Origin: Candidatus Hydrogenedens sp.
GTDB taxonomy: Bacteria; Hydrogenedentota; Hydrogenedentia; Hydrogenedentales; Hydrogenedentaceae
Length of the DNA stretch: 64,000 bases
Direction: 5' to 3'
NCBI GenBank assembly: GCA_049968235.1
Contig: JBMFRC010000004.1
Span: 190,013 to 254,012, forward strand
Positions 2,800 through 27,829 of the stretch are shown here, in pieces (the first letter of the stretch is position 1; each line of letters starts with the position of its first letter). A program made the translations under genes and the position numbers. The notes beneath the pieces were generated by a model. It worked only from the letters and a program-made list of their open reading frames with translations, made no database searches and was not told the origin of the DNA.

Positions 2800-4983
2800 A
2801 TGAAAAAAAAAGAGACTATATTTTTTCTTTTAATTATTCTTTTTGCGATTGTAATACGGGTTATATATTTCTACTATATCTCACAACAACCTGAATTTTC
2901 ACACCCAATTATAGATCCTCAATTTAACGATTACTGGGCACATAAAATATTGTATCAGGGTAATTATCCATCTCCAACGGGAGATGACCCTATGATAGAA
3001 AATACACCTTATGGAAGACCGCCAGGTTATCCTTTTCTTCTAGCTTTTATATACTTTCTTTTCGGAGATAATTATAATTCTCCGCGGTTAATACAATTTT
3101 TTGTGGGAATTGTAAATGTTTTTTTTATGTATTATTTTGTTTCGAGAATTTTTGTGAGTAAAAAAGCAGGATTAGTTTCTGCATTTTTAATGGCTATCCT
3201 TTGGGAACCTATTTATTTTGAAGGGGAAATAAACTATCCTGTATGGGTAATCTCACTTACAATAGTTCTTTTATTTACCTCATTACGATATCTGCAAATA
3301 AAAACAACAAAATTTGTGATTCTTTCGGGCTTTTTACTAGGAATTATCGCTCTCTTTAGACCCAATGGACTTTTATTGTTACCTATGTATGTTGGAATTG
3401 TGTTTCATATATTTGGGAAACGGAACTTCAAGAAGGCTCTTGCTCATTGCATTCTCTTTTCTGTATCCGTATTCTTAATAATATCTCCTGTTTTTATTAG
3501 AAACTATATAGTCAGTAATGATTTTTTTTTGATTTCGTGTTTTGGGGGGATAAATACATACATAGGTAACAATGCCCAGTCAACGGGGGACAGTCCTACG
3601 GTCCCGAATATAATTCATTTGTGTGGAGTTGATAATTGGGATTGTTTTAATTATCGATTATTAGTAAAAGGTCTTGGGATAAAACAAGAGGGTCGTTACT
3701 ATTCATTCAAGGAGGCTTCTCAGTTCTTTTATAAAAAGGTTTATGAGTATTGGAAAAAAGAACCTATCTCTGCAATCAAATTAACGGCTCGTAAATTCTT
3801 TTTATTTTGGGGTCCTGCTATAGTTTCTGATGGAAAAGTTATTTATCATGACAGGGAAGCAACATTTCTTCGTTTATTGCCCGGTTTTCCTTTTCTGGTG
3901 GGATTATCTTTTTACTTCTTAATTTTGTTTATTCGACAGAGAAATCAATTACCTCCGGAACTTAAAACGCTTCTATTATTTATTTTTACATGGAGTTTTG
4001 TTTATTCGTTATCTGTTATTCCTTTTTTTGTTTCAGAACGATACCGAATCCCTATTATTCCACCTTTATGCATTATAGGGGGAATAGGTACCGTTTTATT
4101 TCTTAGTAATACTGGTAATCAAAATAAGTTAAACAAGTTTAAACAAATTATTATTTGTTTACTATGCCTTACCCTTGTTTATAAGACACCTGTAAAATAT
4201 GAACCGGATACACCTCGATGGTTTTACCATAAAGCCATTGTTTCCTATAAATCTCAAAATGAAAAAGATGCGGTTTACTATGCTAATAAAGCCATTTCAA
4301 AGAACCCCAATTATTCAGAAGTTTATGCCTTTCTTGGTATAATCTCTCTTAATCATCATGAGTTTAAAGAGGCAGAAAATTATTGTTTAAAAGCATTAGA
4401 AAAAAATCCTGATTATGCTATGGCAAATAATAATTTAGGTTATATTATGGAATTAGAAAAGAAATTTGACCTTGCAGAAAAGTATTACTATAAAGCATGT
4501 GAATTAAGTCCTGTATATACCCTGGCATGGATAAACCTCGGGAGAATGTATTTGTATTATCATAACCAGATTAACTTAGCAAAAGATTGTTTCGTAAAAG
4601 TAACTGAGTTAGACCCCAACTCATGGGTTGGATGGTTTCACTTAGGGAATGTATATATACAAATGGGAGAATACTCCTCAGCGGAGAAATTTCTAACAAA
4701 ATCTCTTTCATTAAATCCGGAAAATGCCCTTATTCATAATAATTTTGGTTTTTTATATATACAGAGAAAACAGTATGAAAAAGCGATAGAGTTTTTAAAA
4801 ACAGCATTAGAAAAAGAGCCACAATTTACAGATGCTATGTTTAATCTCGGGAATGCGTTTAAAGAAATGAAGCAATATGAAGAGGCAGAATATTGGTATA
4901 AAAAAGTTTTAGAAATTGACCCACAATTTACAGATGCAGTAGATAAAATCAATGAAATAAATACAAATAAAAAAACTAACTAA
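2800..4983 (+). CDS. GT-C fold membrane glycosyltransferase (ArnT/PMT_2-like, subfamily A) fused to C-terminal TPR repeats.
   Basis: Polytopic N-terminus with NDYWAHKIL...RPPGYPFLLA, parallel to the ArnT-type loop of the paralogs at 4997 and 30979. The C-terminal third carries canonical TPR repeats (AxxNLGxxY...). Confidence 0.7.
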   Translation: MKKKETIFFLLIILFAIVIRVIYFYYISQQPEFSHPIIDPQFNDYWAHKILYQGNYPSPTGDDPMIENTPYGRPPGYPFLLAFIYFLFGDNYNSPRLIQFFVGIVNVFFMYYFVSRIFVSKKAGLVSAFLMAILWEPIYFEGEINYPVWVISLTIVLLFTSLRYLQIKTTKFVILSGFLLGIIALFRPNGLLLLPMYVGIVFHIFGKRNFKKALAHCILFSVSVFLIISPVFIRNYIVSNDFFLISCFGGINTYIGNNAQSTGDSPTVPNIIHLCGVDNWDCFNYRLLVKGLGIKQEGRYYSFKEASQFFYKKVYEYWKKEPISAIKLTARKFFLFWGPAIVSDGKVIYHDREATFLRLLPGFPFLVGLSFYFLILFIRQRNQLPPELKTLLLFIFTWSFVYSLSVIPFFVSERYRIPIIPPLCIIGGIGTVLFLSNTGNQNKLNKFKQIIICLLCLTLVYKTPVKYEPDTPRWFYHKAIVSYKSQNEKDAVYYANKAISKNPNYSEVYAFLGIISLNHHEFKEAENYCLKALEKNPDYAMANNNLGYIMELEKKFDLAEKYYYKACELSPVYTLAWINLGRMYLYYHNQINLAKDCFVKVTELDPNSWVGWFHLGNVYIQMGEYSSAEKFLTKSLSLNPENALIHNNFGFLYIQRKQYEKAIEFLKTALEKEPQFTDAMFNLGNAFKEMKQYEEAEYWYKKVLEIDPQFTDAVDKINEINTNKKTN

Positions 4984-4996
4984 ATATTAAAAGAAT

Positions 4997-7642
4997 ATGG
5001 ATAACGAAAATAAAAAAAATAAAGATTGGGTAATTCTCTCGTGGATACTTTTGTTTGCGTTCTGTTTTCGGATTATTTATCTCTGGCAATTAGTAGATGC
5101 TCCAGACTTTATTGCACTTCGGCAGGACTTGGATGTTCAGGATTATCAGGCAAGAGCGATACTATCCGGAGATTGGACTGTTCGGGAAGGGGTTTCTGAC
5201 CCACATATTCCAACGACGCCGTATTATCGACCTCCGGGTTACCCATACTTCCTTGCAGTTGTATATTATTTTTTTGACGGTTCCTATCTGGCACCGCGAT
5301 TCATTCATTTTTTTCTTGGACTCGTGCATATTGTCCTAATATATTTTTTAGCCAGAATTATATTTAATAGAATCGCAGGTTTATGTGCATCTTTTCTTGT
5401 AGCCACTTATTGGGCTTTTATTTATTATGAAGGAGAAGTAAACGACCCTGCTTTATTTGTTTTTCTTGTCCCCTGTATATTATTTCTGATTTATTATGCT
5501 GTTACTAAGGACTTTATCTTGTATTCTTTTTTCTCAGGCTTATGTATTGGTATATATGCCATCATGAGACCTAATATTCTATCATTTATTCCTTTTTTAT
5601 CATTATGGATTTTGTTCTTTTTTTATAAGCAGAAAAAACTATTTAAGAGTTTCTTTCATATATTTTTTTTGATAATTGCAATTTTTACTGTGATAACTCC
5701 GGTTACAGTTCGGAATTATCTCGTATCGGGTGAATTTGTGCCTATCTCTACTTATTTTGGGGAGAATCTATTGATAGGAAATAGTGAGGATGCTGATGGA
5801 GTAACGCCGTGGTTGCCTTACCTTCAGGAATTAGAAGGAACGGGTAATTGGTCTGTATGGCATTATGATAATGTTGTAAAGGGTTTAGGGAAATTTTTGG
5901 GGAGAGAAGTTTCACATTCCGAAGCATCAAATATTTTTGCTAAAATGGCTATAAATTATATTATTCATCACCCATGGCAAACATTTTTACTCACATGCAA
6001 AAAAGCTATTTTATTCTGGAGTCCACAAGAAATTACAGAGAACAAAGTTGTAGAGGGGGAAAGACAACATTATATACCTCTGAAATATATGCCTCGATTT
6101 CCTATTGTCCTGAGTACATTTTTATTAGGTTTGTTTTTTTTGATAAAAAATATATTTTTCAATAAGACATTTAAAGATACAAATATAAATATTTATTTTC
6201 TAACACTGGTATTGTTGTTTATATTTACATATTTTGCTTCATTTCTTCCCTTTTTTGTAAATGCAAGGGCTCGTGTTCCGATATTGGGATTGATGTTCAT
6301 CATCGGCGGATACACATTTTCAGAAATTCGGTATTTATTTGTTAAGAGAAGAATAACTCCCGCTCTCATAAGTATTTTTGTTTTAGTAATACTTTTTCTC
6401 ATAACTCATATTGATATTATTCCCTATAAACCGGATATGTGCCGTTGGCATTATGACCGTGCTGACTCTTATCTCCGTGTAGGTCGTGTTGATGAAGCAT
6501 TACAGGAAGTACATGCTCTTATGTCTCGTCCGGAACGTCCTATGACTTACATGCCATTCCGGCTGGGACATGCACTTGCAAAGTTAAATTATTCCGAATT
6601 AGCTATAGATTTATTACGACTGGCACTTAGTCCTGACCCTTCAGAACAGCCTTCTATGTATAGAGAAGATATTTACTATCATATCGGTGCTTTATTTATG
6701 AAATTAAAAAGATATGATGAAGCCATCAAAGAATTTGAAAATGCTTTATCTTTAAATCCCAAAGACCCGAGAGTTCATAATGACCTAGGTGTCATTTACA
6801 AAGAACGCAATGACTTAGTAAAAGCCGAACAAGAATATAAATATGCTATTGATACAGAACCAGAATTTAATCTTGCTATAGCAAACTTGACAGAATTGTA
6901 TATTCAACAGAAAAAATACGCTGAAGCGATTGAATTGCTGGGAAATAGCCTAAAATTACAGCCTCAAAATACAGAGTTACTTTATAATTTAGGATTTGTT
7001 TATCATAATTCGGGACAACTTGAAAAAGCACTTTCCTATTACCAACAAGTATTATCTCATGATAGTAAGGAACCTAATACACTTAATAATATGGCTATGA
7101 TTTATTTAGAAAAAAATGACCTGGAAAAAGCCAAAAATACCCTGTTATGGTGTATATGCAAGAATTCCTATTTTACACTCGCATATGCGAATATGGGGGA
7201 CATTTTATATTCAGAAAACCAACTACCAAAAGCCCTATATTATTATGATAAAGGGCTTGAAACGAATTATGAACATATAGGACTTTGCGCTGCGTTAGCC
7301 TTACTTTATACAGAAATGGGTAATGCCGAGAAAGGGATTGTGGAATTAATGGATGTTTTAAAAAAACATCCAGAGTCCACCAATTTATGGTTTGCTCTGG
7401 GAAATATCTATAAAAATAGTAATCAAAATAATGAGGCTATTGGTGCTTATAATAAAGTATTAGATATAGATAGTTCTTATACATCGGCGTATAGAAATTT
7501 GATGGAAATTTATTTAAATAAAGGAGATGTTAATAAAACACTGGAAATCTTTGAAAAAGCGAAACAAAACATTAAAGATTCTGAACAAATAGAATATTTA
7601 TCCTCTCTTATCCTGGAAAAACAAGGAAATACCAATAAATGA
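4997..7642 (+). CDS. GT-C fold membrane glycosyltransferase (ArnT/PMT_2-like, subfamily A) fused to a long TPR array.
   Basis: VQDYQARAILSGDWTVREG...YYRPPGYPYFLA resembles the ArnT D-x-RYA-x-I-x-x-GDW / KPP-x-YW region. Roughly 12 TM helices, then about 10 TPR repeats. Clear paralog of 2800 and 30979. Confidence 0.75.
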   Translation: MDNENKKNKDWVILSWILLFAFCFRIIYLWQLVDAPDFIALRQDLDVQDYQARAILSGDWTVREGVSDPHIPTTPYYRPPGYPYFLAVVYYFFDGSYLAPRFIHFFLGLVHIVLIYFLARIIFNRIAGLCASFLVATYWAFIYYEGEVNDPALFVFLVPCILFLIYYAVTKDFILYSFFSGLCIGIYAIMRPNILSFIPFLSLWILFFFYKQKKLFKSFFHIFFLIIAIFTVITPVTVRNYLVSGEFVPISTYFGENLLIGNSEDADGVTPWLPYLQELEGTGNWSVWHYDNVVKGLGKFLGREVSHSEASNIFAKMAINYIIHHPWQTFLLTCKKAILFWSPQEITENKVVEGERQHYIPLKYMPRFPIVLSTFLLGLFFLIKNIFFNKTFKDTNINIYFLTLVLLFIFTYFASFLPFFVNARARVPILGLMFIIGGYTFSEIRYLFVKRRITPALISIFVLVILFLITHIDIIPYKPDMCRWHYDRADSYLRVGRVDEALQEVHALMSRPERPMTYMPFRLGHALAKLNYSELAIDLLRLALSPDPSEQPSMYREDIYYHIGALFMKLKRYDEAIKEFENALSLNPKDPRVHNDLGVIYKERNDLVKAEQEYKYAIDTEPEFNLAIANLTELYIQQKKYAEAIELLGNSLKLQPQNTELLYNLGFVYHNSGQLEKALSYYQQVLSHDSKEPNTLNNMAMIYLEKNDLEKAKNTLLWCICKNSYFTLAYANMGDILYSENQLPKALYYYDKGLETNYEHIGLCAALALLYTEMGNAEKGIVELMDVLKKHPESTNLWFALGNIYKNSNQNNEAIGAYNKVLDIDSSYTSAYRNLMEIYLNKGDVNKTLEIFEKAKQNIKDSEQIEYLSSLILEKQGNTNK

Positions 7643-8790
7643 CACATTGTGATGAAATAGAACTAAGCGTTGTATTACCTTGTTTGAATGAAGAACGGAC
7701 TATTGGACAATGTGTACAGAAAACACAAAAGGTTTTCGATAAATATCATATTAAAGGTGAAATTATTGTCGCAGATAATAATTCTACGGATAGTTCCTCA
7801 TCAATTGCGGAACAAGCAGGTGCGAAGGTAGTCAAGGTAATTACTCCTGGATACGGGAATACTCTTCGAAACGGTATAAAAGAAGCAAAAGGGAAATATA
7901 TAATCTTTTTTGATTCTGATTTATCCTATGACCCTGAGGATATTCCTCAAATATTAGAGAAATTACGAGAAGGTTATCCTATTGTTCTGGGGTCTAGGAA
8001 AAAAGGAACGATTGATAGAGGCTCTATGCCATGGTTACATAGATATATAGGCACTCCGATAATGACTTTACTTGCGAATATTTTTTTTAAGGCACATATA
8101 ACGGATATTAATTCGGGTATGCGTGGTATGTCCCGAAAAGTATTTGATGAATTAGATTTACATTCGGAAGGCATGGAATTTGCTTCTGAAATGATAGCAA
8201 AAGCACATTGGACCCAAACTAAAATAGCGGAAGTTCCTATTCATTTTCACTGTGACCAGAGGGGAAGGCGTCCACATTTACATTCTGTTCGTGATGGATG
8301 GAGACATTTACAACTTATGTTTCATTATTGTTCTATTAATTGGTTTCTTATACCGGGTTTTATATTGTTATTTTTTTCATACCTTGTATTTTTTATTCTG
8401 CCTCAGTATATGGATATTTATACATCCTTTTTTATTTCTTTACTAACCAACATTATTGCAACCCAAATTTTATTGATTGGAGTCATTGCTCAGGGTAGAG
8501 TTCGTGGTTCAAAGTTTAGATACATTCCATCAAAATATCTCCTTTTTTTATCCCGAATAATCAAAGTCGAAAAGGGTATGTTTTTGGGTTTAGGGATATG
8601 TTTTTTAGGCATGTTTTTAATGCTTTATACTCTTCGTTCAGGAATAAACATGCCAGATATAACTATAAAAATATTTTTTGGGGGTATTCTATGTTTTGTT
8701 CAGGGGGTTCAGGTTTTATTTAGTTCCATTTTAATCGGGCTGTTTGGAATTCGTGTTTCAGAAGAGGAAGAATTTTTTAGAAAATCTTAG
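7639..8790 (+). CDS. GT2 family glycosyltransferase, polyprenyl-phosphate sugar synthase type (DPM1/ArnC/GtrB-like), with C-terminal TM helices.
   Basis: VVLPCLNEERTI N-terminal GT2 signature. DSD (DxD) motif in FFDSDLSYDPEDI. Hydrophobic C-terminal tail. The ATGA 4-nt overlap with the upstream gene suggests translational coupling. Confidence 0.8.
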   Translation: MTHCDEIELSVVLPCLNEERTIGQCVQKTQKVFDKYHIKGEIIVADNNSTDSSSSIAEQAGAKVVKVITPGYGNTLRNGIKEAKGKYIIFFDSDLSYDPEDIPQILEKLREGYPIVLGSRKKGTIDRGSMPWLHRYIGTPIMTLLANIFFKAHITDINSGMRGMSRKVFDELDLHSEGMEFASEMIAKAHWTQTKIAEVPIHFHCDQRGRRPHLHSVRDGWRHLQLMFHYCSINWFLIPGFILLFFSYLVFFILPQYMDIYTSFFISLLTNIIATQILLIGVIAQGRVRGSKFRYIPSKYLLFLSRIIKVEKGMFLGLGICFLGMFLMLYTLRSGINMPDITIKIFFGGILCFVQGVQVLFSSILIGLFGIRVSEEEEFFRKS

Positions 8791-8805
8791 AGTTATAATA
8801 AAGAT

Positions 8806-10269
8806 ATGAAACATGTTGTATTTGTAATGCCACCATATCCTTATTCTCGTTCCATTGGACAGGAGGAAGGAAAAAGGCAAATTGGGTTAATGCCGCCTTT
8901 AGGTGTTGGGTATCTTACTGCATACTTAGAGCGGACAGGGAAATACCAATGTTATTTTGTCGATGCAGTTGCGGAGAGGTTATCTATTGAGGAAACTGTT
9001 TCTCGTATTCTATCATTCGAACCGGATGTAATTGGAATTTCATCTTTTACGACTTTTCTTCTCAATACTTCATATCAACTTGCACGAAGATTAAAAGAAG
9101 AATGTCCTTCGATTCCATTGTTAATGGGAGGTCCTCACACTACTTCTTTCGGGGAACAGGTGTTGAAAGACTGTCCGTATATTGATTATGTCATTCCGGG
9201 AGATGCTGAAGTTCCTCTTTTAGAGTTATTAGAAAAGATTTTTTGTGGAGATATACCGGATAAGGTAAAAGGCATCATTTATAAAAATGAAAAAGATGAA
9301 ATCGTAGATACGGGCTGTTCTATCCCTGTAGATGATATTGATACTCTACCTTTCCCCTCACGACACATTTATAACCATGAGTTATATGAGCCTTTACCGA
9401 GTTTAAGTCCCAAACGCCCTGCCATGTCGATGATTACAGCACGGGGTTGTCCATGGGCACGATGTAAATTTTGTTATCAGGGAGGGAAATATGCATCTCC
9501 ATTTCGTCGTCGGTCTCCGGAAAATGTTGTGGCAGAATTAAAATACCTTATTGAAAAATATAATGTAAAAAATATTGTATTCTGGGATGATAATTTTTGT
9601 ATCTTTCCTGAATGGATACATAAATTTTGCTCCCTTATAAAACAGGGGAAAATAAAATTAGATTGGTCTGTTTTATCGCGTGTAAATACAGTAACACCGG
9701 AAATGTTAAATGAAATGGCAGAAGTAGGTTGTTACAGTATTCAATTTGGTATTGAATCCGGAAATGAGGAAATACTTAAACTTATTCGAAAAGGTCACAC
9801 ATTAGAACAATGTCGAAATGCAGTCCGCTGGGCAAAATCCGCTGGTATGGAGACAAGGGCTTTCTTTGTTTTGGGTTTTCCTACGGAGACCCCAGCAATG
9901 AGTGAAGAGACTATTCGTTTTGCATGTGAATTAAATATCGATTATGTTGTTTTCTTTTCGTATTATGTAGCACCCGGAACACTTCTTGCCGAGATTGCTA
10001 TGAGAGAAGGGCAGTGTTTTGAATTTATAGGACAACATTTACCTTCTTACCTTCCTAATACCTATCCTGATTTGGAGACATTAACAAAGAAAGTACAATC
10101 CGCCTATCGAAGATATTACCTCAGACCTCGATATTTCGCTCGAACTATTACAAGAACGATTCGTCGTCCCCATCATTTGAAAAATCAAATAAAGGCATTT
10201 AATTATTGGCTTGGATTGAGTTTAAAAAAATGGACTCACAACAAAAATTCAACAGTTAACATAACCTAA
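8806..10269 (+). CDS. B12-binding-domain radical SAM protein (class B-like).
   Basis: N-terminal Rossmann-like B12-binding region (PPLGVGYLTAYL...DVIGISSFTT). The cysteine cluster reads GCPWARCKFC, i.e. CX4CX2C rather than the canonical CX3CX2C. The radical SAM core follows. Confidence 0.75.
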   Translation: MKHVVFVMPPYPYSRSIGQEEGKRQIGLMPPLGVGYLTAYLERTGKYQCYFVDAVAERLSIEETVSRILSFEPDVIGISSFTTFLLNTSYQLARRLKEECPSIPLLMGGPHTTSFGEQVLKDCPYIDYVIPGDAEVPLLELLEKIFCGDIPDKVKGIIYKNEKDEIVDTGCSIPVDDIDTLPFPSRHIYNHELYEPLPSLSPKRPAMSMITARGCPWARCKFCYQGGKYASPFRRRSPENVVAELKYLIEKYNVKNIVFWDDNFCIFPEWIHKFCSLIKQGKIKLDWSVLSRVNTVTPEMLNEMAEVGCYSIQFGIESGNEEILKLIRKGHTLEQCRNAVRWAKSAGMETRAFFVLGFPTETPAMSEETIRFACELNIDYVVFFSYYVAPGTLLAEIAMREGQCFEFIGQHLPSYLPNTYPDLETLTKKVQSAYRRYYLRPRYFARTITRTIRRPHHLKNQIKAFNYWLGLSLKKWTHNKNSTVNIT

Positions 10270-10285
10270 AAATAAAGGATAAACT

Positions 10286-11755
10286 ATGAGAACAAATATG
10301 TTCTTTTATTACTTCATAACAGGATTTCTATTCTCAATAATCTTTCAACAAATAGGAATAACCGAAGAAATATATAATATAGGAAACCGACGAGAAATTT
10401 TTATTGATAATAAATTAATTGATAAATTAGAGAATATATCATTTAAGTTATGTGAGCCTATTCCTGCTGAGAAGGTTTTATATTTTGATAAACCGTGGGA
10501 GGGTAAACACAGTGGATATGTGACCTTAATCCATGACCAAGACATTTATCGCCTCTATTACAGAGGACTTCCTGTTTCAAAAGCCGATGGCTCAAATGCA
10601 GAAGTTACCTGTTATGCAGAAAGCACAGATGGTATTCATTTCATTAAACCATCTTTGGGACTCTTTGAAATAGCAGGTTCAAAAGACAATAATGTAATTC
10701 TTGCTAATGATCCACCTTTTTCACATAATTTTGCTCCTTTTATAGACGAAAAGCCCAACATTCCCAAGGAAGAACGATATAAAGCAGTGGCAGGGACTTT
10801 TGATAGTGGTTTATATACCTTCGTTTCCCCAGATGGAATCCGATGGCGGAAATTATCAGAGAAACCTATACTTAAAGGGGCATCATGGAAAGATTTTGCC
10901 TTTGATTCTCAAAATGTAGCTTTTTGGTCTATTTTAGAACAAAAGTATATTTTGTATTTTCGCACCTGGAATGGTCCCAATCAAGAATATCGTTGGGTAA
11001 GTCGAACAACCAGTTCAGATTTTTTAAATTGGGAAAAACCTGTAGTAATGGATAAAGGAAATGCACCATGGGAACATATATATACCAATCAGACAATCCC
11101 TTATTTTAATGCTCCACACCTATATGTTTCAATATCAGCCCGATTTGTCCCTGGATGTAAAGTATTATTACAAGAAGAAATAAAATCCATAGGGGTTGAT
11201 ATAGATTACAGTCATGATTGTTCCGATGTAATATTCATGAGTAGTCGAGGGGATAATATATATAGCCGATTTTTTTTAAATGCTTTCTTAAAACCTGAAT
11301 ATCCTTTAGAAAACTGGGTATCCAGAACCAATTATCCTGTGCGAGGCATTGTTCCTGCAGGTGATTATCAAATGGCTTTTTATATTCAAAAAAATTATGC
11401 ACAGGACACTGCATATATTCAGCGATATTTACTTCGTCTGGATGGTTTTTCCTGTCTTTCCGCAGGATATGCAGAAGGTATTATTACCACTGTGCCGTTA
11501 ATTTTCAAAGGGGATAATCTGTTTCTTAACTTTGTTACCTCTGCTATAGGTTATATAAATGTAGAAGTTCAGGATATAAATGGAAATTCCATATCGGGAT
11601 ATGAGTTTAGTAATTCCATACCGTTGAAAGGAAATCGGATTAATTTCAAAGTATCATGGAATGATACTAATAATTTATCTTCATTGCAGGGAGCACCTAT
11701 TCGATTATCTTTTAAGATGAAAGATGCAGATTTATATGCAATCCAATTTAAGTAA
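10286..11755 (+). CDS. Exported hypothetical protein with BNR/Asp-box-like repeats; possibly a sialidase-like beta-propeller or glycoside hydrolase fold.
   Basis: Hydrophobic N-terminal signal. Three S-x-D-G/x-x-x-W/F motifs (STDGIHF, SPDGIRW, SSDFLNW). No catalytic assignment is possible from the sequence. Confidence 0.45.
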   Translation: MRTNMFFYYFITGFLFSIIFQQIGITEEIYNIGNRREIFIDNKLIDKLENISFKLCEPIPAEKVLYFDKPWEGKHSGYVTLIHDQDIYRLYYRGLPVSKADGSNAEVTCYAESTDGIHFIKPSLGLFEIAGSKDNNVILANDPPFSHNFAPFIDEKPNIPKEERYKAVAGTFDSGLYTFVSPDGIRWRKLSEKPILKGASWKDFAFDSQNVAFWSILEQKYILYFRTWNGPNQEYRWVSRTTSSDFLNWEKPVVMDKGNAPWEHIYTNQTIPYFNAPHLYVSISARFVPGCKVLLQEEIKSIGVDIDYSHDCSDVIFMSSRGDNIYSRFFLNAFLKPEYPLENWVSRTNYPVRGIVPAGDYQMAFYIQKNYAQDTAYIQRYLLRLDGFSCLSAGYAEGIITTVPLIFKGDNLFLNFVTSAIGYINVEVQDINGNSISGYEFSNSIPLKGNRINFKVSWNDTNNLSSLQGAPIRLSFKMKDADLYAIQFK

Positions 11756-11757
11756 TT

Positions 11758-11764
11758 AAGGAGG
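11758..11764 (+). promoter_or_regulatory. Shine-Dalgarno AAGGAGG, 7 nt upstream of the ATG at 11772.
   Basis: Read directly from the sequence. Shows that SD-dependent initiation is used in this genome. Confidence 0.7.
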
Positions 11765-11771
11765 TATAACT

Positions 11772-12845
11772 ATGCTTTATAAAGCATTAACATTACTTCT
11801 TGTTTTTTTCTTAAACCAACAAAACATTTTAGAAAAACCTCCTTTTTATAAGGATAAGAATAATTTGCTTTATTACATTGGAAATGGAGGAGAAATTCAT
11901 GAGATAACGAGTTTAAAAGAATGGGATATAAGGAAAAATCATATACTTCAAAATATGCTTCTTGTAATGGGTCCATTGCCAGACCGTTCCCATTTACCTC
12001 CTCTGGATGTGAAAGTTGAATCTACAGAGGATATGGGGTCATATTGGCGAAAGAAAATTACATTTAATGCTGAAAAAAATGATAGATTACCTGCTTATTT
12101 GTTGGTACCTAAAAATGTTAATGGTAAAAGACCTGCTATTGTATGTTTACATCAAACTATAGATATTGGGAAAGCCGGTCCTGTGGGTATCGGTGATTCT
12201 AAGAATCGACATCTGGCAAAAGAACTTGCTGAAAGAGGATATATTGTTATTGTCCCGGATTATCCGGGCTTTGGCGATTATAAGATTGATGTATATTCAA
12301 TGGGATATGCAAGTGCCACTGCGAAAGGTATTGGGAATCACCGTCGTTGCATTGACCTGCTACAAACAATGATTGAAGTGGATAAAGATAAAATTGGCGC
12401 TATTGGACATTCTTTAGGTGGACACAACACTCTTTTTTTAGGGGCATTTGATAAACGGATTAAAGTAATGGTTACCAGTTGCGGTTTTACCAGTATGAGA
12501 AAATATTATAATGGTGACTTAACAGGGTGGTCTCATAAAGGTTATATGCCAAGAATAAAAGAACAATATCAATGCAATCCGGACTTACTCCCTTTTGATT
12601 TTACGGAAGTTCTCGGGATATTAGCTCCCCGCCCCGTATTTATTAACGCCCCCATACATGACAATAATTTTGAAGTAACAGGTGTAGATGATTGCGTTAA
12701 TTCTGCGCAAAGGATTTATACCCTTTATAAGGCAGAAGAAAACTTAAAAGGAATTCATCCGGATTGTGGACATGATTTCCCCCCTGAAATCCGAGAAGAA
12801 GCCTATCGTTTTTTAGATAAACATTTAGGCTGGAACCCTAAATAG
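11772..12845 (+). CDS. Secreted alpha/beta-hydrolase fold serine hydrolase (dienelactone hydrolase/esterase-like).
   Basis: Signal peptide. Nucleophile elbow GHSLGG (GxSxG). Conserved downstream CGHD (His) region. Confidence 0.65.
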   Translation: MLYKALTLLLVFFLNQQNILEKPPFYKDKNNLLYYIGNGGEIHEITSLKEWDIRKNHILQNMLLVMGPLPDRSHLPPLDVKVESTEDMGSYWRKKITFNAEKNDRLPAYLLVPKNVNGKRPAIVCLHQTIDIGKAGPVGIGDSKNRHLAKELAERGYIVIVPDYPGFGDYKIDVYSMGYASATAKGIGNHRRCIDLLQTMIEVDKDKIGAIGHSLGGHNTLFLGAFDKRIKVMVTSCGFTSMRKYYNGDLTGWSHKGYMPRIKEQYQCNPDLLPFDFTEVLGILAPRPVFINAPIHDNNFEVTGVDDCVNSAQRIYTLYKAEENLKGIHPDCGHDFPPEIREEAYRFLDKHLGWNPK

Positions 12846-12846
12846 A

Positions 12847-15060
12847 TTATCTGCCTTCACTTCCTAATTTTGCTGTTAAATATTCCTCAAAAAAAGACTC
12901 AATAAAAATTCCTTTATCTTTCAATTCATAATATTCCCGCAATGCTTTTTTATAATTCTTTTCTATGAAAATGGAATCAAGAAGATTTTTCCATGACCGG
13001 TATTGCCCATTTTCACATTGTATAGCGGAATAGAACCAATTTTTTGCTTCTTCCTCATTACCTTGAGATAGTGAAATAACACCTAAGGCAATTCGTGGAA
13101 GAGCAATATCAGGATTTATATGGATAATAAAGCGAAGTTTTTCTTGTGTGGTTTTCATATCGCCGTTTATCGATGTCATTATAGCATCAAAACATAGGTA
13201 TGCCAATTTCAAATCTTTATCTAACAGAATCGCTTTTTGAAGGAAATATTCTTTATATCCCGGATTTATGTTTCTCTGACTTATCTGATAATATCTCAGG
13301 GATTTTGTAAGTGTGGTGATATTTCCCCCACTTTTGAGAGTATTATATAAATTCTGAAATTGCAATTTTTGTAATGGGTCATTATTAATCAATTTCTCAA
13401 TTAGATACATTGCACACTCTTTGTGATTGGTTTCGACATTGGCAAGGGCAAAATCAGATATTGTAAATTTAAGGGAATCATTTTCAAATTCTTTGCCTGC
13501 CTGATGAGAATATCCACCTCCTTGTTGGAATAGTACTTTATATAATCGGATAGGTTCTATACCGTATAAATCATAAGTTTCATATTGAATTTGGTTGTTA
13601 CTTAACAAACATTCCAATTCAGGGGAACCAAAATCGCCGAAATAAAAGGAGATATAAACAAACCATATTTTATCCGACAAACAACTTGATTTTCTTTGAA
13701 ATAGTTCATGAATAATTGGAATGAACGTGCTTATATCTTCAACAAAGGACACCGGTATTTTTTCATTTTTAAGATTAAATGTAAAGACATCTTTATTGAT
13801 TGCTTGATACACAAATACAGGGGAGTTCTCTTTATCTGAATTTTGTTTTTCTATAAAATGAACTGTATCTTGCCAATTTGTTCTTTGGGGTCCCGGAAGA
13901 GTAATGATTAATTGATAACACAATATTAATATCAAGAAGATTAATAGTAAATAACCAATAATTTTGTGCTTATTTATTTTTATTAAACTACCATAAAGCA
14001 AATATATTGCAAGGCTACAATATAAGGTATATCTTGGGAATATACATGGTCTCCATATAATAGACAGGACATATAATAATAACGGGGGGATTAAGATTAT
14101 TAACAATAAAAGAACTATTCCATACCTTAATTTTAATTCACTTTCATTATCAACATGCCTAAAAACAAACCTAAAACTTAAAATCATCACTATTGTAGTT
14201 ATAACCAATAGAGAAGCATCAAATATAGAATGTATATTTATAAAATATTTGGGGATAACTTCTTCTATAACTCTTACCTGATATGTCATTTTTACTGCGT
14301 CATCAGCAAATAAATCTCCAAGAAATTCAAATAGTGTCGGTATTTTAAACCAGGAAGACTGTTCCGATGAATAATAATGTATACTTGATATATACACGAT
14401 TGAGGGAATACTAATTAATATTTGAGATGCAATAAAGTAGTATTTCTTATAATCGCTTGTATAAAAAACATAAAATATCCATACTATTTCGATTATAAGG
14501 ATAATTACAGCAAAAGGATGTGTCCATAATAAAAGGATGTTTATTAATGTTAAAGTAATCCAATTTTTTCTATTACGATTCTCAGAATATAAAAGCAAAA
14601 AATATATGGACAGAGTAAACAAAAGTGTTAATAAAACATACATTCGTATTCCCTGTCCAAAAAAACGATGAATCGGAGATATAGCGAAAAAAAATCCCGC
14701 CAACAAGCCCATCTTTTCTGAATTGAATCTTCGACCTATAAGGAATAGAACAGGGATAGTCATTACACTTAACAGAATGGATAGTAAACGCAGACCTATA
14801 ACAGAGGGGGAAACATAATGCCAGAAAAGGTATTCGAGTATATAATAAACAGGCATAGTGGCAGGGTCATAAAGAGGATTTAAGAAAAGGAATTCCTTTA
14901 ATGATTCAGCATTAATATGCACTAAACTGGAATACTCATCCCACCAGACCGATTCATCTGAAATGTTATATATACGAATAACAAAAGCCAATAGGACAAT
15001 AAGTGAACAATAAACTAACACGTGTATTTTATGTTTTTTTTGTCCTTTTATTTTTTCCAC
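12847..15060 (-). CDS. GT-C fold membrane glycosyltransferase (PMT_2-like, subfamily B with a WWDEY loop motif) carrying a C-terminal TPR-like region.
   Basis: After the first TM helix comes WWDEYSSLVHIN (a DE motif in loop 1, typical of PMT/ArnT-type GT-C enzymes). Many TM helices follow, then TPR-like C-terminal repeats. Convergent with the gene at 11772, with a 1-nt gap. Confidence 0.7.
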   Translation of the reverse strand: MEKIKGQKKHKIHVLVYCSLIVLLAFVIRIYNISDESVWWDEYSSLVHINAESLKEFLFLNPLYDPATMPVYYILEYLFWHYVSPSVIGLRLLSILLSVMTIPVLFLIGRRFNSEKMGLLAGFFFAISPIHRFFGQGIRMYVLLTLLFTLSIYFLLLYSENRNRKNWITLTLINILLLWTHPFAVIILIIEIVWIFYVFYTSDYKKYYFIASQILISIPSIVYISSIHYYSSEQSSWFKIPTLFEFLGDLFADDAVKMTYQVRVIEEVIPKYFINIHSIFDASLLVITTIVMILSFRFVFRHVDNESELKLRYGIVLLLLIILIPPLLLYVLSIIWRPCIFPRYTLYCSLAIYLLYGSLIKINKHKIIGYLLLIFLILILCYQLIITLPGPQRTNWQDTVHFIEKQNSDKENSPVFVYQAINKDVFTFNLKNEKIPVSFVEDISTFIPIIHELFQRKSSCLSDKIWFVYISFYFGDFGSPELECLLSNNQIQYETYDLYGIEPIRLYKVLFQQGGGYSHQAGKEFENDSLKFTISDFALANVETNHKECAMYLIEKLINNDPLQKLQFQNLYNTLKSGGNITTLTKSLRYYQISQRNINPGYKEYFLQKAILLDKDLKLAYLCFDAIMTSINGDMKTTQEKLRFIIHINPDIALPRIALGVISLSQGNEEEAKNWFYSAIQCENGQYRSWKNLLDSIFIEKNYKKALREYYELKDKGIFIESFFEEYLTAKLGSEGR
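14728..15033. repeat. About 300-bp segment duplicated at 22608..22890 (roughly 90% identity, one internal indel).
   Basis: Direct DNA comparison, e.g. gatagtaaacgcagacctataacagagggggaaacataatgccagaaaaggtattcgagtatataataaacaggcatagtggcagggtcataaagaggatttaagaaaaggaattcctttaatga occurs in both copies. Confidence 0.8.
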
Positions 15061-15364
15061 AAGAAAGCCTTAAATCACAAGTTATAAGATAGAATTACAT
15101 ACTTACAGTTTAGCAATTGGGTGTTCGTGAATTCCATAGCCCCTTTGTAGCACGATGAATAAATATAAATGTTCAATATCAACAGGAAATAAGACATTTA
15201 TAAAAGTATATAGCAATAAGAAATAAGATAAAGCAGATAATATTAGAAAGCAAGAAGGAGAAATATATACTTGCGATTAAGTATCACCTAAATGCGAATA
15301 CTATTCTGCAAAAACGAAAGATGATTAAAGAACCGAAAGAACCTATAAAACAATCGTAAAACTG

Positions 15365-15983: not shown

Positions 15984-18249
15984 GTACTTGTTGATACCGC
16001 ATTTCCATTATCTTATTATTAGAGATAACAGGTTCTTTATGCAAAATCTTTCTAAGTTCTTGTTCACTCTTCCATTTATATGGGAAACAGCCCAAGGGAA
16101 GTATACATTGCGAATCTTCCAATTTATGTTTCGCAAAATGGTTTAAGTAATGAGCTGGACAAAAACCATAGTTCATCAATTTTTCAGATTCTTTGGCGAG
16201 AGATCTGTAGTCCTTACTCTTCAAAGCGTTCCAAATAGGTCTCATTGTATAGTAGAAAAATATATTTAACCTTTTGCACTTATTAAATACTTTTTCTGCC
16301 TCATCAGGATTAGTTTCCAAAAGAGATAATGCATATGGAAAACTTATCCAGGAGATAATATCTATTCCTGGCTTTAATAAATTTTCAATCCAGCAAGATT
16401 TCCCAATGGATATCCAATCCATAGCCACCTGAATATACGAGCCTCTTTCAGGTGTCTCGTCTGGATTTATATAGTGGGACAAAATAATCCCATCTAAAGA
16501 ATTTACCTCATTTTCAAAGCATAGTTTAAGGTTGGCCATCAATTCCTCAGGAAGTTCCTTTTTTAACCGAAAGTCTGAAGTTTTTCCGTCAACAATATTC
16601 TTAAGGTTATCTTCTACTCGAAACCCGAAATACGCTAAACCTTCAAAAAATGGAAATTCCTTCACAGTAAAATAAATAAGGTGATTCTCCTCCCACTCTT
16701 TCCTTATTGACGGTGCTAATATCCCATATTCTGTCCTCAGAACGACCCACACCGTATATTCCGAAGGAAGATGCTTAATAAGGTATACGAGGGCATCAGT
16801 GGCTAAATGGAGGGACCCCGCAGAAATTAAGACAGGCTCTTTCTGTTTTAGTCTGGAGCACCAGTGATAGTAAAAAATTGGTGTAATCTCCTGATGAGCA
16901 ATAATGAATATATCTTTACCGCTTACATCTTGGGACAAAAGGTCTGTGCATTCATTCCAGGCAGTATATGGCTTCCCTTGTTGATACATAAGATATTGAA
17001 GAAAAATATATCCCAGCACAACCAAAACCAATAATACCTTCAAAATTCTCTTAGAAGAAGCCCACCTAAAAACCAAATTAATCAGTAGCCCCCACCGAAT
17101 AATCAAAGCAGGCAAAAGAAAGCGGAGTGTCATTACAGGAATCTTTGACACCAGGGTAAATCCTACAAAAAACAATGGCATCAAAAACGCTAAACATATT
17201 AGCGTAAACTCCGGAAGTTCGTCATGTATTGTCTTATCCTTGATACGAGAAAACATCTCCACCAAAAAATAAAATAGTAGAATCAACTCAAAGACAACAT
17301 TCCCGCCCTTAAGGGAATAAACCAATATTTTGTCGACAGCACTTGCAATCATATTAGTAAAATCACTATAGCCAAAGATGGAGAAAATTAAAATTGCAAA
17401 CGATGCAAATCGGGGAACTTCATCATCATAAATCCCAAACACATAATTAAAAATAGTAAATAAACAAATTTGAGGTGTATATGCTACATTAGAAGGCATA
17501 GCAAACAAATCGAGATAAAGCAAAACTAAACAACCCATAAGTAGATTTAACAAACCGAGCATCAGAATTTTTTTCGACCTGTTATTGAGGAAAAAGTAAA
17601 TGATAATCCCCGCCTCAAAGAAGAGTAACCACATATAAATATAATAGGTCAGCAGTAATAAGAGATTTACAAAAATTAGGAGTAAACATTGAGATGTTCT
17701 TATTTCTCCTTCATTCCTTTTGATAAGATTAAAAAATAAATAAAGAGAGCAGATAGAAAGGGAAAAACCCGACGCATGAGGTCTTAAAAGCATACTGTAC
17801 CATAAAAAAGTTGGAATAGTAGCGATTGTCATTGCGGATAAAAAACAAACAATTTCATTCCGGAAAAAAATCTTGAATAATCGGTAGCCAAAAATAACAG
17901 TAAATATACTTGCAATTATAGAGAACAATCTAAAAGATTCCGGAGATATACCCAGCAACTTCACAAATATATAAAATATAGTCAAATAAACAGGGGCAAC
18001 TTCAGGTCCCTGCGTTCCCACCATTTGGATAAAAGTGTACAAATCCTGAACCTTCAAATATGCTACTCCCCAAAAATACTCATCAAACCATATAGAAGGC
18101 TTTTGAGATAAGAACAAAATTAATAAGCAGGTGAGAACTACAAGAATACCTATCGGCAAATACCTTTTTTTTACTAATATCAAAGAGTTATCCATACCTA
18201 TCTCCAAATTACATAATATCTCGAATTCGTATGAGGTCCATAATCTCAC
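15925..18249 (-). CDS. GT-C fold membrane glycosyltransferase (PMT_2-like, subfamily B, WFDEY motif) with a distinct Cys-containing C-terminal domain.
   Basis: WFDEYFWGVAYL after TM1, then polytopic. The C-terminal roughly 330 aa is shared with the 18209 paralog (…HFAKHKLEDSQCILPLGCFPYKW). Confidence 0.7.
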   Translation of the reverse strand: MRLWTSYEFEILCNLEIGMDNSLILVKKRYLPIGILVVLTCLLILFLSQKPSIWFDEYFWGVAYLKVQDLYTFIQMVGTQGPEVAPVYLTIFYIFVKLLGISPESFRLFSIIASIFTVIFGYRLFKIFFRNEIVCFLSAMTIATIPTFLWYSMLLRPHASGFSLSICSLYLFFNLIKRNEGEIRTSQCLLLIFVNLLLLLTYYIYMWLLFFEAGIIIYFFLNNRSKKILMLGLLNLLMGCLVLLYLDLFAMPSNVAYTPQICLFTIFNYVFGIYDDEVPRFASFAILIFSIFGYSDFTNMIASAVDKILVYSLKGGNVVFELILLFYFLVEMFSRIKDKTIHDELPEFTLICLAFLMPLFFVGFTLVSKIPVMTLRFLLPALIIRWGLLINLVFRWASSKRILKVLLVLVVLGYIFLQYLMYQQGKPYTAWNECTDLLSQDVSGKDIFIIAHQEITPIFYYHWCSRLKQKEPVLISAGSLHLATDALVYLIKHLPSEYTVWVVLRTEYGILAPSIRKEWEENHLIYFTVKEFPFFEGLAYFGFRVEDNLKNIVDGKTSDFRLKKELPEELMANLKLCFENEVNSLDGIILSHYINPDETPERGSYIQVAMDWISIGKSCWIENLLKPGIDIISWISFPYALSLLETNPDEAEKVFNKCKRLNIFFYYTMRPIWNALKSKDYRSLAKESEKLMNYGFCPAHYLNHFAKHKLEDSQCILPLGCFPYKWKSEQELRKILHKEPVISNNKIMEMRYQQVLSLIGLRDNFASDFLSHSN

Positions 18250-20458
18250 CGTATCGGGTTTCTATTTTTTGATTCACTGTTTTATTAGGCTCTTTAAGCA
18301 AAATATCCCTTAATCTACTCTCACTATTTGTAGTGAATGGGAAAACACCTATGGGGAGAACACATTTTGAACCTTCTAACTTATGTTCCGCAAGATGATA
18401 AAACACATAAGCAAAAAAATAACCGTCATTTAGGAGCCTCTCAGATTCTTTCTTCAATAATGAATACTCATTCTTTTTAAGGTATTCCCAAATATTGGAA
18501 AACACAAAAGCAAAGTAAGGATTTTGCCCTTTTAGTCTCCGAAATATTTCCTCAGCCACATTCTGATTTTCCAACTCTGATAAAGCATACCCAAAAGTTA
18601 CCCAAGAAGTTAGTTTCTGATATTGCTTTAAAAGAATTCTTGCCCAATCCGACTTTCCTAATCTTATAAGGTCGAGGATTATATGTATAACATTAGTCAT
18701 GCCTATTTCATCCCCAAAATCCCTATAGCGAGCCAATATAATTTTCTCTTCCTCCGTAAACTCATTCTTAAGATTAGCCTGGAGCAGGGGCACCAATGGA
18801 CTAGACGAGTATAAGGATTCTTCTACATAAGGCGACTCTTCCTTCACCTTAAGATTTTCCTCGACGGAAAATATATAACACAAAATCCCTTCCCAAGAAG
18901 GGAATCTTGCCAAGGAGTATCTTAAATTGTATTCATCATAAACGGCGGTCATTTTTTGTTCGAAACTTGGGTCCCACTTAGTATTGTATATAATGCATAT
19001 CTTATGTTCAGGGGGAAGTTGCTTAACCAAATAGAGGAGGAAATCCAGAGAAGTATCTAAAGAATCCGAGGTAAAGATAGAAGGAAACTTTCTCCTTGTC
19101 TTTTCCCGCCAATTGTATTTGAACACAGCACAATCCACATCTGAACCACAAATTATGATGTCATCTTCTCTGAGGTTTTCATTAACATATTGAACGCATC
19201 CTTCCCAATCCGTATAAATACTATTTGCTCTAAACAAAAGATATTGATGTAATGCCCATATTAAAATAACAGCAACAACAAACCACTTTAGTAGAACTTT
19301 TTTAGTATTCCAATTATTCAACATAATAAACAACCAACAGAACTTTGCAACATAACAAACTAAAATATATCGAGCCACCAGAACATTACCACCAGAAATA
19401 AAAGACCAGCCGGCGAAAACAATAGGGCATACAAAGGCAAGTAAGTATATAAATAACAGTTTTTCATCGAATGTCCAAAAGCCTTTTATCAATTTCCAAG
19501 TTGTAGCTAGGAACGAAGCGAAAAGTACCAACGCAATCAATCCGCCTCCAACATTTAAAACTACTAACGGAGCAACATCACATATCTTTTGAATCATCGG
19601 TGGAGGTACATTCGGAGCAATAATCGGCTGAATATAAACACTCCAAGAAACATAAGAAGGCACTTCAAAATTTCTCACCCCAAAAATTATTTCCAACACC
19701 TCCAAAAATGAGTAATTTAAGGGAAGTGCCAAAAACTGGTTGCCATAAAAAACATAAACCAAATACATAAAACCTAAAGAAAAAACTATCAGGTTGAGGA
19801 TAGTAGGAAGTAAATACACAAATTTATCTCTAATTACCCTTAGGAAAAGCAAAAAAATCTCAACAGCAATAATCCAAATAAAGAGATAGTGTGATAAAAC
19901 CATAAAAATATTAATTACAGGAAGAGAAAAAATAAAAAAAAGTGAATTTTTCCTCTCCGAAGACAAACAGCGAATAAGTAAATATAATGAGATAAAAGCA
20001 AACATCTGAACTATGGAGTGATACCTCAAAGAAAAGGCATTCCACAAAAATAGGGGAAAGGATACAAATAATAAACTCGCGGCGAGAGCATATCTTCGTG
20101 GTAACAAACTTTTTGCAATAAGGTAGATAAAATTGGCACTCACAATGTTAAAAAGAACTATTACCCATCGAAAAGATTCCACTGAAACACCTAACCTTCC
20201 ACAAATTAAATAAAGGAAAAAAAAATAAAGAGGAGGGCCCTGGGGGCCATAAGATAAGATATACAGATAAAAAGTAGTGAAACTCGGAACATTTAGGTAG
20301 TCTAACCCTCCTAAATACTCATCTCCCCAAACAGACGGCTTTTGAGCGATTAATAATATAAATGTTAATGTTATAATCGACAATAATAAGTGTTCAATAC
20401 TTCCTATCCGACGGGACAAGTTCCAATATTTACCTATATATATCATGTTAAAATCCAA
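18209..20458 (-). CDS. GT-C fold membrane glycosyltransferase (PMT_2-like, subfamily B, VWGDEY motif); tandem paralog of 15925.
   Basis: VWGDEYLGGLDYL loop motif. Polytopic. C-terminal domain homologous to that of 15925 (…HLAEHKLEGSKCVLPIGVFPF). Its 3' end overlaps the start of 15925 by about 40 nt. Confidence 0.7.
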   Translation of the reverse strand: MDFNMIYIGKYWNLSRRIGSIEHLLLSIITLTFILLIAQKPSVWGDEYLGGLDYLNVPSFTTFYLYILSYGPQGPPLYFFFLYLICGRLGVSVESFRWVIVLFNIVSANFIYLIAKSLLPRRYALAASLLFVSFPLFLWNAFSLRYHSIVQMFAFISLYLLIRCLSSERKNSLFFIFSLPVINIFMVLSHYLFIWIIAVEIFLLFLRVIRDKFVYLLPTILNLIVFSLGFMYLVYVFYGNQFLALPLNYSFLEVLEIIFGVRNFEVPSYVSWSVYIQPIIAPNVPPPMIQKICDVAPLVVLNVGGGLIALVLFASFLATTWKLIKGFWTFDEKLLFIYLLAFVCPIVFAGWSFISGGNVLVARYILVCYVAKFCWLFIMLNNWNTKKVLLKWFVVAVILIWALHQYLLFRANSIYTDWEGCVQYVNENLREDDIIICGSDVDCAVFKYNWREKTRRKFPSIFTSDSLDTSLDFLLYLVKQLPPEHKICIIYNTKWDPSFEQKMTAVYDEYNLRYSLARFPSWEGILCYIFSVEENLKVKEESPYVEESLYSSSPLVPLLQANLKNEFTEEEKIILARYRDFGDEIGMTNVIHIILDLIRLGKSDWARILLKQYQKLTSWVTFGYALSELENQNVAEEIFRRLKGQNPYFAFVFSNIWEYLKKNEYSLLKKESERLLNDGYFFAYVFYHLAEHKLEGSKCVLPIGVFPFTTNSESRLRDILLKEPNKTVNQKIETRYGEIMDLIRIRDIM

Positions 20459-27799: not shown

Positions 27800-27829
27800 G
27801 AATAATCAATCCTTTGAATTGAAAACAAT

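Follow-up and report, generated by a model that had tools for sequence, protein, structure and literature searches.

What does a cobalamin-type radical S-adenosylmethionine (SAM) protein do among genes of membrane-bound glycosyltransferases, and is the unusual spacing of its cluster cysteines part of the answer? The question is raised by a 64,000-nucleotide (nt) stretch of DNA from Candidatus Hydrogenedens sp. (assembly GCA_049968235.1, contig JBMFRC010000004.1, positions 190,013 to 254,012), which was analyzed as a whole and is called the window below. The gene at 8806–10269 of its forward strand, here named rSAM1, is an intact open reading frame (ORF) of 487 amino acids (aa) encoding a vitamin B12-binding radical SAM (B12-rSAM) protein with a CX4CX2C motif. 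We found that the subfamily to which it belongs is genetically linked to polyprenyl-phosphate sugar synthases of glycosyltransferase family 2 (GT2) and to transferases of the GT-C type. On balance, we consider it probable that rSAM1 is a functional class B radical SAM enzyme tailoring the lipid-linked sugar donor made by the adjacent GT2.

The affiliation of rSAM1 with the cobalamin-type (class B) radical SAM proteins, proposed in the initial annotation of this DNA, is supported by hidden Markov models (HMMs), conserved cofactor motifs and the predicted fold. A cobalamin-binding Rossmann domain is predicted at aa 28–141 (8887–9228; Pfam B12-binding, PF02310, 68.1 bits against a cutoff of 32.1). 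The radical SAM core at aa 209–373 (9430–9924) matches Pfam Radical_SAM (PF04055) over the whole profile length with 91.8 bits against a cutoff of 29.5. The DNA at 9445–9474 (ggt tgt cca tgg gca cga tgt aaa ttt tgt) translates to G-C-P-W-A-R-C-K-F-C and gives the predicted [4Fe-4S] motif C215-P-W-A-R-C220-K-F-C223 (9448–9474), with four residues between the first two cysteines, as had been read originally, and two between the second and the third. The three cluster cysteines are invariant in the rSAM1 family, with the same CX4CX2C spacing.

The cobalamin motifs G-x-S-x-L, Gly-Gly and Gly-Glu were defined from the structures of OxsB, TsrM and TokK (PMC9204698). Their rSAM1 counterparts, G77-x-S79-x-F81, G108-G109 and G132-D-A-E135, lie inside the predicted Rossmann domain and were compared among 63 family members. 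G77 and S79 are each conserved in 61/63, with L, F, M, I or V at position 81; G108 is found in 63/63 and G109 in 62/63; the third motif has the form G-[E/D]-[G/A]-E, with G132 in 62/63 and E135 in 63/63. The long beta1-alpha1 loop of rSAM1 contains no histidine, in keeping with the base-off, His-off binding seen in the solved enzymes. The radical SAM core includes G315-x-E317-S-G319 and, after beta-2, the equivalent of the GGE motif, D261-D262-N263, conserved in 63, 60 and 51 of the 63 sequences, respectively. The latter aligns with D250-A251-N252 of TokK; with a D-D-N site of this kind and the unique iron left free for SAM, ordinary radical initiation would be expected.

An AlphaFold2 model of rSAM1 built from the 63-sequence alignment (pLDDT 91.4, pTM 0.90) has a beta-alpha domain at aa 1–150. 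The best Foldseek matches of this confident model in the PDB are AprD4, TsrM, OxsB, MgmA, TokK and CysS, which places it in the B12-rSAM fold. In sequence, the B12 domain of rSAM1 aligns with the cobalamin domains of TokK and OxsB. No transmembrane (TM) segment was predicted in rSAM1.

The CX4CX2C spacing had been taken for an oddity of this gene; it proved to be a trait of a whole clade. An identical rSAM1 protein is present on an independent NCBI assembly (GCA_049971155.1), and a copy with 92% identity was found in Candidatus Hydrogenedens terephthalaticus. The C-x4-C-x2-C spacing occurs in all 120 homologues listed (85% to 40% identity; the 120 best of 910 at E <= 1e-10), within the loop pattern C-[P/S/A]-[W/Y]-[A/G/S/N]-[R/K/Q]-C-x-F-C, and CX4 spacing was also revealed across many phyla, in 56 genomic loci. 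When 1.84 billion cluster representatives were searched exhaustively, 9,426 relatives reached E <= 1e-30; the best 135 with a single module divided into 32 of the CX4 and 103 of the CX3 type, with the CX4 sequences ranking first. Of the 51 CX4 sequences in a neighbour-joining tree of 157, 50 fell into one clade of 54 leaves, rSAM1 with them; BchE, HpnJ and other CX3 proteins were placed outside it. Because the spacing is uniform among the homologues and all but one of the CX4 sequences gather in a single clade, the extra loop residue is an ancient insertion, now fixed, which sets a subfamily apart.

Such a motif is not new for the class. OxsB uses CX4CX2C instead of the usual motif, with the cluster and SAM bound in its structure (PMC9204698), and GenD1, like GenK and Sis14, was reported with Cx4Cx2C (PMC4340712). 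In the phmmer alignment of rSAM1 with OxsB, CPWARCKFC is matched by CDYSRCTFC; the two agree in spacing and in where the aromatic and the basic residue stand. By analogy with OxsB, the additional residue would represent a structural variant of the cluster loop rather than a defect. OxsB, the enzyme of oxetanocin A synthesis (PDB 5UL2–5UL4), also resembles rSAM1 as a cobalamin-dependent radical SAM enzyme acting on a sugar ring, and its cobalamin motifs (G-x-S-x-N, GG and GE) have counterparts in rSAM1. It differs in its low identity (~20%, E 4.4e-10), its length of 744 aa, an extra N-terminal domain, its position in a different clade, its nucleotide substrate and the absence of a glycosyltransferase context. 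A CX4CX2C cluster is also found at RadicalSAM.org, though within a different megacluster.

Comparison with the curated NCBIfam models did not place rSAM1 in any named family. The best match was HpnJ (TIGR03471; 185.4 bits against a cutoff of 577.6), followed by BchE (TIGR02026; 181 bits against 481.35, aligned over aa 4–449) and, further down, by methylases of ribosomally synthesized and post-translationally modified peptides and by P-methylases. The AprD4 diol-dehydratase model (NF033070) gave 68 bits against 500. Membership in the TIGR04072 type (lipid/ladderane B12-rSAM), which the initial annotation had named for comparison, was rejected, with 94.1 bits for rSAM1 and 81 for rSAM2, the second intact B12-rSAM of the window, against a cutoff of 360. 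Assignments of rSAM1 to PhpK and to the peptide methylases ApyD and rSAM_ocin_1 were likewise rejected, all scores being far under the curated cutoffs. For this reason we assign rSAM1, on sequence grounds, to an unnamed subfamily with the loop C-P-[W/Y]-[A/G/S]-[R/K]-C-x-F-C. BchE, the anaerobic Mg-protoporphyrin monomethyl ester cyclase, aligns with rSAM1 over nearly its full length and differs in its CX3CX2C motif (CPFTCRFC in Thiodictyon); the window offers no photosynthesis context.

Among the longer relatives of rSAM1, no domain fusions to glycosyltransferases ("Rosetta stone" proteins) were found; what these proteins contain are domains of class-I methyltransferases or 2Fe-2S ferredoxins, or several B12-rSAM modules in tandem. 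A C-terminal class-I SAM methyltransferase is fused to the CX3 relatives P0180 and P0249, and the CX3 relative P0266 ends in a thioredoxin-like 2Fe-2S ferredoxin, possibly a built-in electron donor. Giant proteins of 1,500–2,600 aa (P0125, P0126, P0134, P0148, P0153, P0154, P0163, P0176, P0202 and P0210) match rSAM1 in two to five stretches, contain up to four CX3CX2C motifs each and look like tandem B12-rSAM modules.

To see in what company the subfamily is encoded, we surveyed the best 78 loci, one genome per species, with 10-kb flanks. They span Hydrogenedentota, Nitrospirota, Elusimicrobia, Omnitrophota, Patescibacteria, Woese- and Nanoarchaeota (DPANN archaea), Magnetospirillum and others. 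GT-C genes were detected with an HMM iterated from the GT-C domains of the window, and GT2 genes with a GT2 HMM. In total, GT-C genes were found in 42/78 loci, in 17 cases at a distance of at most 300 bp (16 of these on the same strand), GT2 genes were found in 41/78, and one or the other was present within 10 kb in 57/78. The density of GT-C genes per 100 kb of flank decreased from 13.4 within 1 kb to ~1.0 at 8–10 kb, and that of GT2 genes from 12.1 to ~1.5; thus the association is local and is not an effect of genome-wide abundance.

The calls were checked against curated models: PMT_2 was recognized in 10/10 adjacent GT-C proteins examined (Pfam; 8 above the gathering score), and 10/10 linked GT2 proteins sampled had AglJ, ArnC, Dol-P-hexose, PpgS or PgfS as their best NCBIfam model. 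A GT2 gene lies directly upstream of the rSAM1 orthologue in loci L011–L015 and L025. BLASTP with the GT-C proteins of the window found only 3–6 of the 78 loci, because GT-C proteins diverge fast; the iterated HMM was required. Linkage was also observed in 20 of 22 loci of CX3 sister sequences, so it belongs to the wider clade and not to the insertion. The same set of components as in the bacterial window was revealed in a co-directional operon of a woesearchaeotal (DPANN) metagenome-assembled genome (L049:1933–11401), consisting of a B12-rSAM, a DUF6541 membrane protein, LPG_synthase_TM, a GT-C-like protein, a short GT2, PMT_2 and a CX4 B12-rSAM. A fixed flippase partner was not supported: a single-sequence HMM of LPG_synthase_TM found none, and a multi-seed HMM found similar genes in 9/78 loci. 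In the window, a flippase-like LPG_synthase_TM gene is located at 28813–29745, ~18 kb away.

It should be mentioned that an uncharacterised CX3 B12-rSAM, 26% identical to rSAM1, is encoded on plasmid 1 of Lawsonia intracellularis (NC_008012.1; locus L010, 5995–7458). It belongs to a polysaccharide locus that also includes GT2 genes, GalE, DUF2304 proteins, another radical SAM gene and five class-I methyltransferases.

In the window itself, rSAM1 is the fourth of six co-directional genes forming an operon at 2800–12845 on the forward strand, with gaps of at most 16 nt and one overlap of 4 nt. The first two genes (2800–4983 and 4997–7642) encode GT-C glycosyltransferases with tetratricopeptide repeats (TPR), matching PMT_2 with 44.2 and 42.9 bits, respectively, against 26.1. 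The second of them overlaps by 4 nt the start of the GT2 gene (7639–8790), which ends 15 nt upstream of rSAM1. The GT2 protein has a cytoplasmic GT-A domain (Pfam, 99.6 bits) and four C-terminal TM segments. Its best NCBIfam matches are AglJ, PpgS, Dol-P-hexose transferase and ArnC, all under their equivalog cutoffs; together with the TM layout, they suggest an enzyme of the kind by which polyprenyl phosphate is charged with a sugar. The locus thus pairs a membrane-anchored GT2 of the GtrB/ArnC/DPMS type with GT-C, as expected of an extracytoplasmic glycosylation module. Downstream of rSAM1 follows a gene (10286–11755) for a 489-aa protein with a hydrophobic N-terminus and no Pfam family, found in 4/78 loci, the closest relatives only; it has a faint match to GH130 beta-1,2-mannobiose phosphorylase (E 2.6e-5) and may be an exported glycan-processing enzyme. 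The last gene (11772–12845) encodes an alpha/beta hydrolase (esterase/peptidase S9-like) and is likewise restricted to close relatives (3/78 loci).

How could these components work together? In the Arn pathway, ArnD edits the lipid-linked sugar before it is flipped. By the same logic, the GT2 encoded at 7639–8790 would load a sugar onto polyprenyl phosphate at the cytoplasmic face, and the soluble rSAM1 would abstract a hydrogen from the lipid-linked sugar by means of the 5'-deoxyadenosyl radical and then tailor it. The edited donor would be flipped and consumed outside the cytoplasm by the GT-C/TPR enzymes, and rSAM2, plus a third paralogue (rSAM3) in relatives, would add further modifications. 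The proposed route also follows the three-component systems (PMC11127046): in the GtrA/GtrB/GtrX, ArnC/ArnD/ArnT and polyprenyl-phosphoribose systems, as in the window, a polyprenyl-phosphate GT2 and a GT-C are encoded together. The described systems contain no radical SAM enzyme, whereas the modules considered here have one to three B12-rSAMs. The idea of the initial annotation that these proteins modify the glycan or its lipid donor was strengthened by the survey; C-methylation, the chemistry it had in mind, is only one of those possible, as HpnJ, BchE and AprD4 are not methylases.

Several points weigh against the assignment of rSAM1 to donor tailoring. (i) Since rSAM1 scores under every curated NCBIfam cutoff, no function can be transferred to it; the subfamily is biochemically uncharacterised and the chemistry of rSAM1 is unproven. 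(ii) The best family scores (HpnJ and BchE) and the best solved match (AprD4) belong to non-methylases. (iii) Cobalamin binding by rSAM1 is deduced from the motifs only, and the case of AprD4 shows that a B12-type domain alone is no proof that cobalamin is bound or required. (iv) The survey was seeded partly by the CX4 motif and comprised only the best 78 loci, and is biased towards the CX4 clade; 21/78 loci contained neither GT-C nor GT2 within 10 kb. (v) Linkage alone does not separate a lipid-linked sugar, a nucleotide sugar, a finished glycan or the lipid carrier as the substrate.

As to the chemistry, we tentatively favour C-methylation from methylcobalamin, without regarding it as the probable answer. 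Most characterised class B enzymes are methylases, the SAM site of rSAM1 is TokK-like, and the presence of several paralogues per locus suggests regiospecific tailoring. In addition, GenD1 and GenK of gentamicin synthesis are CX4 sugar methylases. Compared by description only (PMC4340712), these cobalamin-dependent radical SAM enzymes share Cx4Cx2C with rSAM1 and methylate unactivated sugar carbons; they differ in acting on soluble aminoglycosides and in being encoded in actinomycete antibiotic clusters.

The main rival is a ring contraction of the HpnJ/Cds type, in which a lipid-linked hexose or hexosamine would be converted to a five-membered carbocycle (cyclitol), or another radical rearrangement; AprD4-like deoxygenation and a non-sugar substrate rank below it. 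HpnJ, which participates in hopanoid cyclitol-ether formation, is not only the best NCBIfam match; it also resembles rSAM1 in length (473 aa) and two-domain layout and has a lipid-linked amino sugar as its substrate. Radical SAM ring contraction of lipid-linked sugars has been proposed for both HpnJ and Cds, and OxsB, with the same CX4 loop as rSAM1, is itself a ring-contracting non-methylase. The gene order is parallel as well: the hpn locus comprises a GT2 (hpnI), hpnJ, a hydrolase (hpnK) and an LPG_synthase-domain protein, and the window GT2, rSAM1, the alpha/beta hydrolase and the LPG_synthase_TM gene. Nevertheless, rSAM1 remains far from the HpnJ cutoff (185 against 577.6 bits), and HpnJ has a CX3CX2C motif (CRSRCTFC in Mycetohabitans) and falls outside the CX4 clade. 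An identification as HpnJ by locus was rejected too: the GT2 of the window best matches AglJ, PpgS and Dol-P-hexose transferase, that is, polyprenyl-phosphate synthases, not HpnI, there is no HpnK-type deacetylase, and the hydrolase occurs in close relatives only. The two or three paralogous rSAMs per locus would also be hard to explain by ring contraction. We regard this rival as unlikely.

Alternatively, the substrate may be something other than a lipid-linked sugar, namely the lipid itself (polyprenol or a membrane lipid, cf. HpnP/HpnR, GrsA/B and Gmm), a soluble nucleotide sugar, or a finished glycan or glycoprotein. Lipid chains are the targets of many B12-rSAMs, the C-terminal segment of rSAM2 is hydrophobic, the window contains genes for nucleotide-sugar tailoring, and the loci devoid of nearby GT-C and GT2 would fit such a substrate. 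On the other hand, the tightest and widest linkage is with the pair of polyprenyl-phosphate GT2 and GT-C, often adjacent and co-directional. rSAM1 has no TM segment, and an exported glycan would be out of reach of a cytoplasmic, oxygen-sensitive radical SAM enzyme. Taken together, another substrate seems improbable.

There is only a slight chance that rSAM1 is a cobalamin-independent sugar dehydratase or deoxygenase like AprD4, its N-terminal domain being a structural remnant. Among solved structures, AprD4 comes first both in sequence (E 5.4e-16) and in fold (TMq 0.72); its substrate, paromamine, is a sugar, and its cysteines, too, are spaced in a non-canonical way (CPYPCRFYC). Yet the sequence match is confined to the radical SAM half (aa 176–402), while with TokK and OxsB the alignment extends to the B12 domain; the score with the AprD4 model misses the cutoff by a wide margin; the rSAM1 family has kept each of the three cobalamin-binding motifs almost unchanged; and a 2026 review puts AprD4 among unrelated enzymes in the B12-dependent radical SAM network. 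Finally, that CX4CX2C is a sequencing or assembly artefact (such as an error at 9440–9460 hiding CX3CX2C, which the initial annotation had allowed for) or the mark of a decaying gene has in its favour solely the departure from the textbook motif and can be dismissed as next to impossible, given the identical protein on the independent assembly, the same spacing in 120/120 listed homologues and the 56 loci, the single tree clade, the intact ORF with invariant catalytic residues, and a true pseudogene of the same window that shows a stop, a frameshift and truncation instead.

This pseudogene and rSAM2 complete the set of two intact B12-rSAM genes and one broken copy beside GT-C genes, which was correctly recognized from the start and agrees with the ORFs, Pfam domains and PMT_2 neighbours. 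rSAM2 (20762–22300, forward strand) is an intact 512-aa protein with both Pfam domains, the canonical CPMHCTFC, again as first read, and a hydrophobic C-terminal segment. Its orthologues (310–343 bits) are located directly downstream of rSAM1 orthologues in L018 (10170–11765), L029 (11370–12965), L039 (11409–12971) and L048 (1813–3375); a further one was found in L015 (19277–20953), and in a complete Hydrogenedentes chromosome an rSAM2 orthologue lies 8 kb from that of rSAM1. As orthologues of the two are adjacent in several phyla, the rSAM1 and rSAM2 families are conserved partners. The C-terminal segment of rSAM2 was scored as TM in the window, L015 and L048, and not in L018, L029 and L039.

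The third gene, rSAM3, is split. Its N-terminal part of ~176 aa is at 22866–23389 on the reverse strand, where a TGA codon at 23089–23087 replaces the second glycine of GGPH and is followed ~70 nt on by a frameshift, after which the remnant ends. Its last 18 codons were located at 15113–15166 on the same strand by tblastn with aa 462–479 of the L012 protein (83% identity). An intact orthologue of 479 aa (87% identity, CPYQCMWC) is present in this relative (L012:16288–17724), directly upstream of the orthologue of the GT-C-like membrane protein encoded in the window at 12847–15060 (reverse strand, weak PMT_2 match); this gene stands directly downstream of intact rSAM3 in relatives. The two pieces of rSAM3 are ~7.7 kb apart and are separated by a gene for a 12-TM protein, a GT-C (PMT_2) membrane protein gene (18209–20458, reverse strand, 32.2 bits), rSAM2 and a duplicated GT-C N-terminal fragment. 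It looks as if an insertion or rearrangement replaced the middle of rSAM3. The fragment, an ORF of 86 aa at 22617–22877 on the reverse strand, is 88% identical to aa 14–95 of the GT-C at 12847–15060 and is probably a scar of the same event.

Next to the rSAM3 remnant, at 23440–29745 on the reverse strand, there is a sugar-tailoring block composed of a WbuX-type N-acetyl-sugar amidotransferase, HisF, HisH, a carbamoyltransferase, a non-B12 radical SAM protein and the flippase-like LPG_synthase_TM protein; like DegT, the WbuX, HisFH and carbamoyltransferase genes are among the many nucleotide-sugar tailoring genes of the window. In a 60%-identical relative (L002/L003, 8759–17827), the GT2-rSAM1 pair directly abuts a block of WbuX-like, HisF, HisH, carbamoyltransferase, radical SAM and LPG_synthase_TM genes. 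In the window, 13 kb with extra GT-C genes separates these two units (7639–10269 and 23440–29745). Because they abut in the relative, the GT2-rSAM1 pair and the sugar-tailoring block are probably parts of a single pathway.

Directly upstream of the operon, at 159–2755 on the forward strand, lie the genes of a PAS histidine kinase and of a sigma-54-dependent response regulator (1364–2755), which end 44 nt before it. No match to a sigma-54 -24/-12 promoter was found in the gap between 2755 and 2800. Loose matches to TGGCAC-N5-TTGC (at most 2 mismatches) numbered 45 window-wide, compared with 27 +/- 5.5 in shuffled sequence, and scans for sigma-70 promoters and terminators remained at or under the shuffle expectation.

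As regards novelty, the enzyme class and the motif variant are both known; what is new is the uncharacterised subfamily that rSAM1 represents. Targeted literature searches for a link of B12-rSAMs to GT-C or polyprenyl returned nothing relevant, and the 2026 reviews of B12-dependent and of lipid-modifying radical SAM enzymes make no mention of polyprenyl or undecaprenyl substrates. The CX4CX2C motif itself is of little consequence, although it is a handy marker of the subfamily. The more useful result is a widespread B12-rSAM subfamily, often accompanied by a partner B12-rSAM, beside a donor synthase and the GT-C that would consume its product. For experimental work, the homologue of Magnetospirillum sp. 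LM-5 (locus L046, 9727–11361), which adjoins a GT-C-like gene, would offer a cultured entry point.

It can be speculated that these genes represent a hitherto undescribed four-component pathway of extracytoplasmic glycosylation, in which one or more B12-rSAMs edit the polyprenyl-phosphate-linked sugar at an unactivated carbon, by C-methylation or carbocyclic ring contraction, at the cytoplasmic face before flipping and GT-C transfer, and that this pathway is common to Hydrogenedentota, Nitrospirota, Elusimicrobia, Omnitrophota, bacteria of the candidate phyla radiation and DPANN archaea; we consider such a generalization possible, though doubtful. If it is true, mostly uncultured lineages would carry unusual C-branched or cyclitol sugars on their surface. 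Donor editing, if true, would add radical chemistry to pathways of the Gtr/Arn type, would predict new sugar structures in uncultured phyla, and would provide a concrete substrate hypothesis for a part of the large sequence space of class B radical SAM enzymes that is still unexplored.

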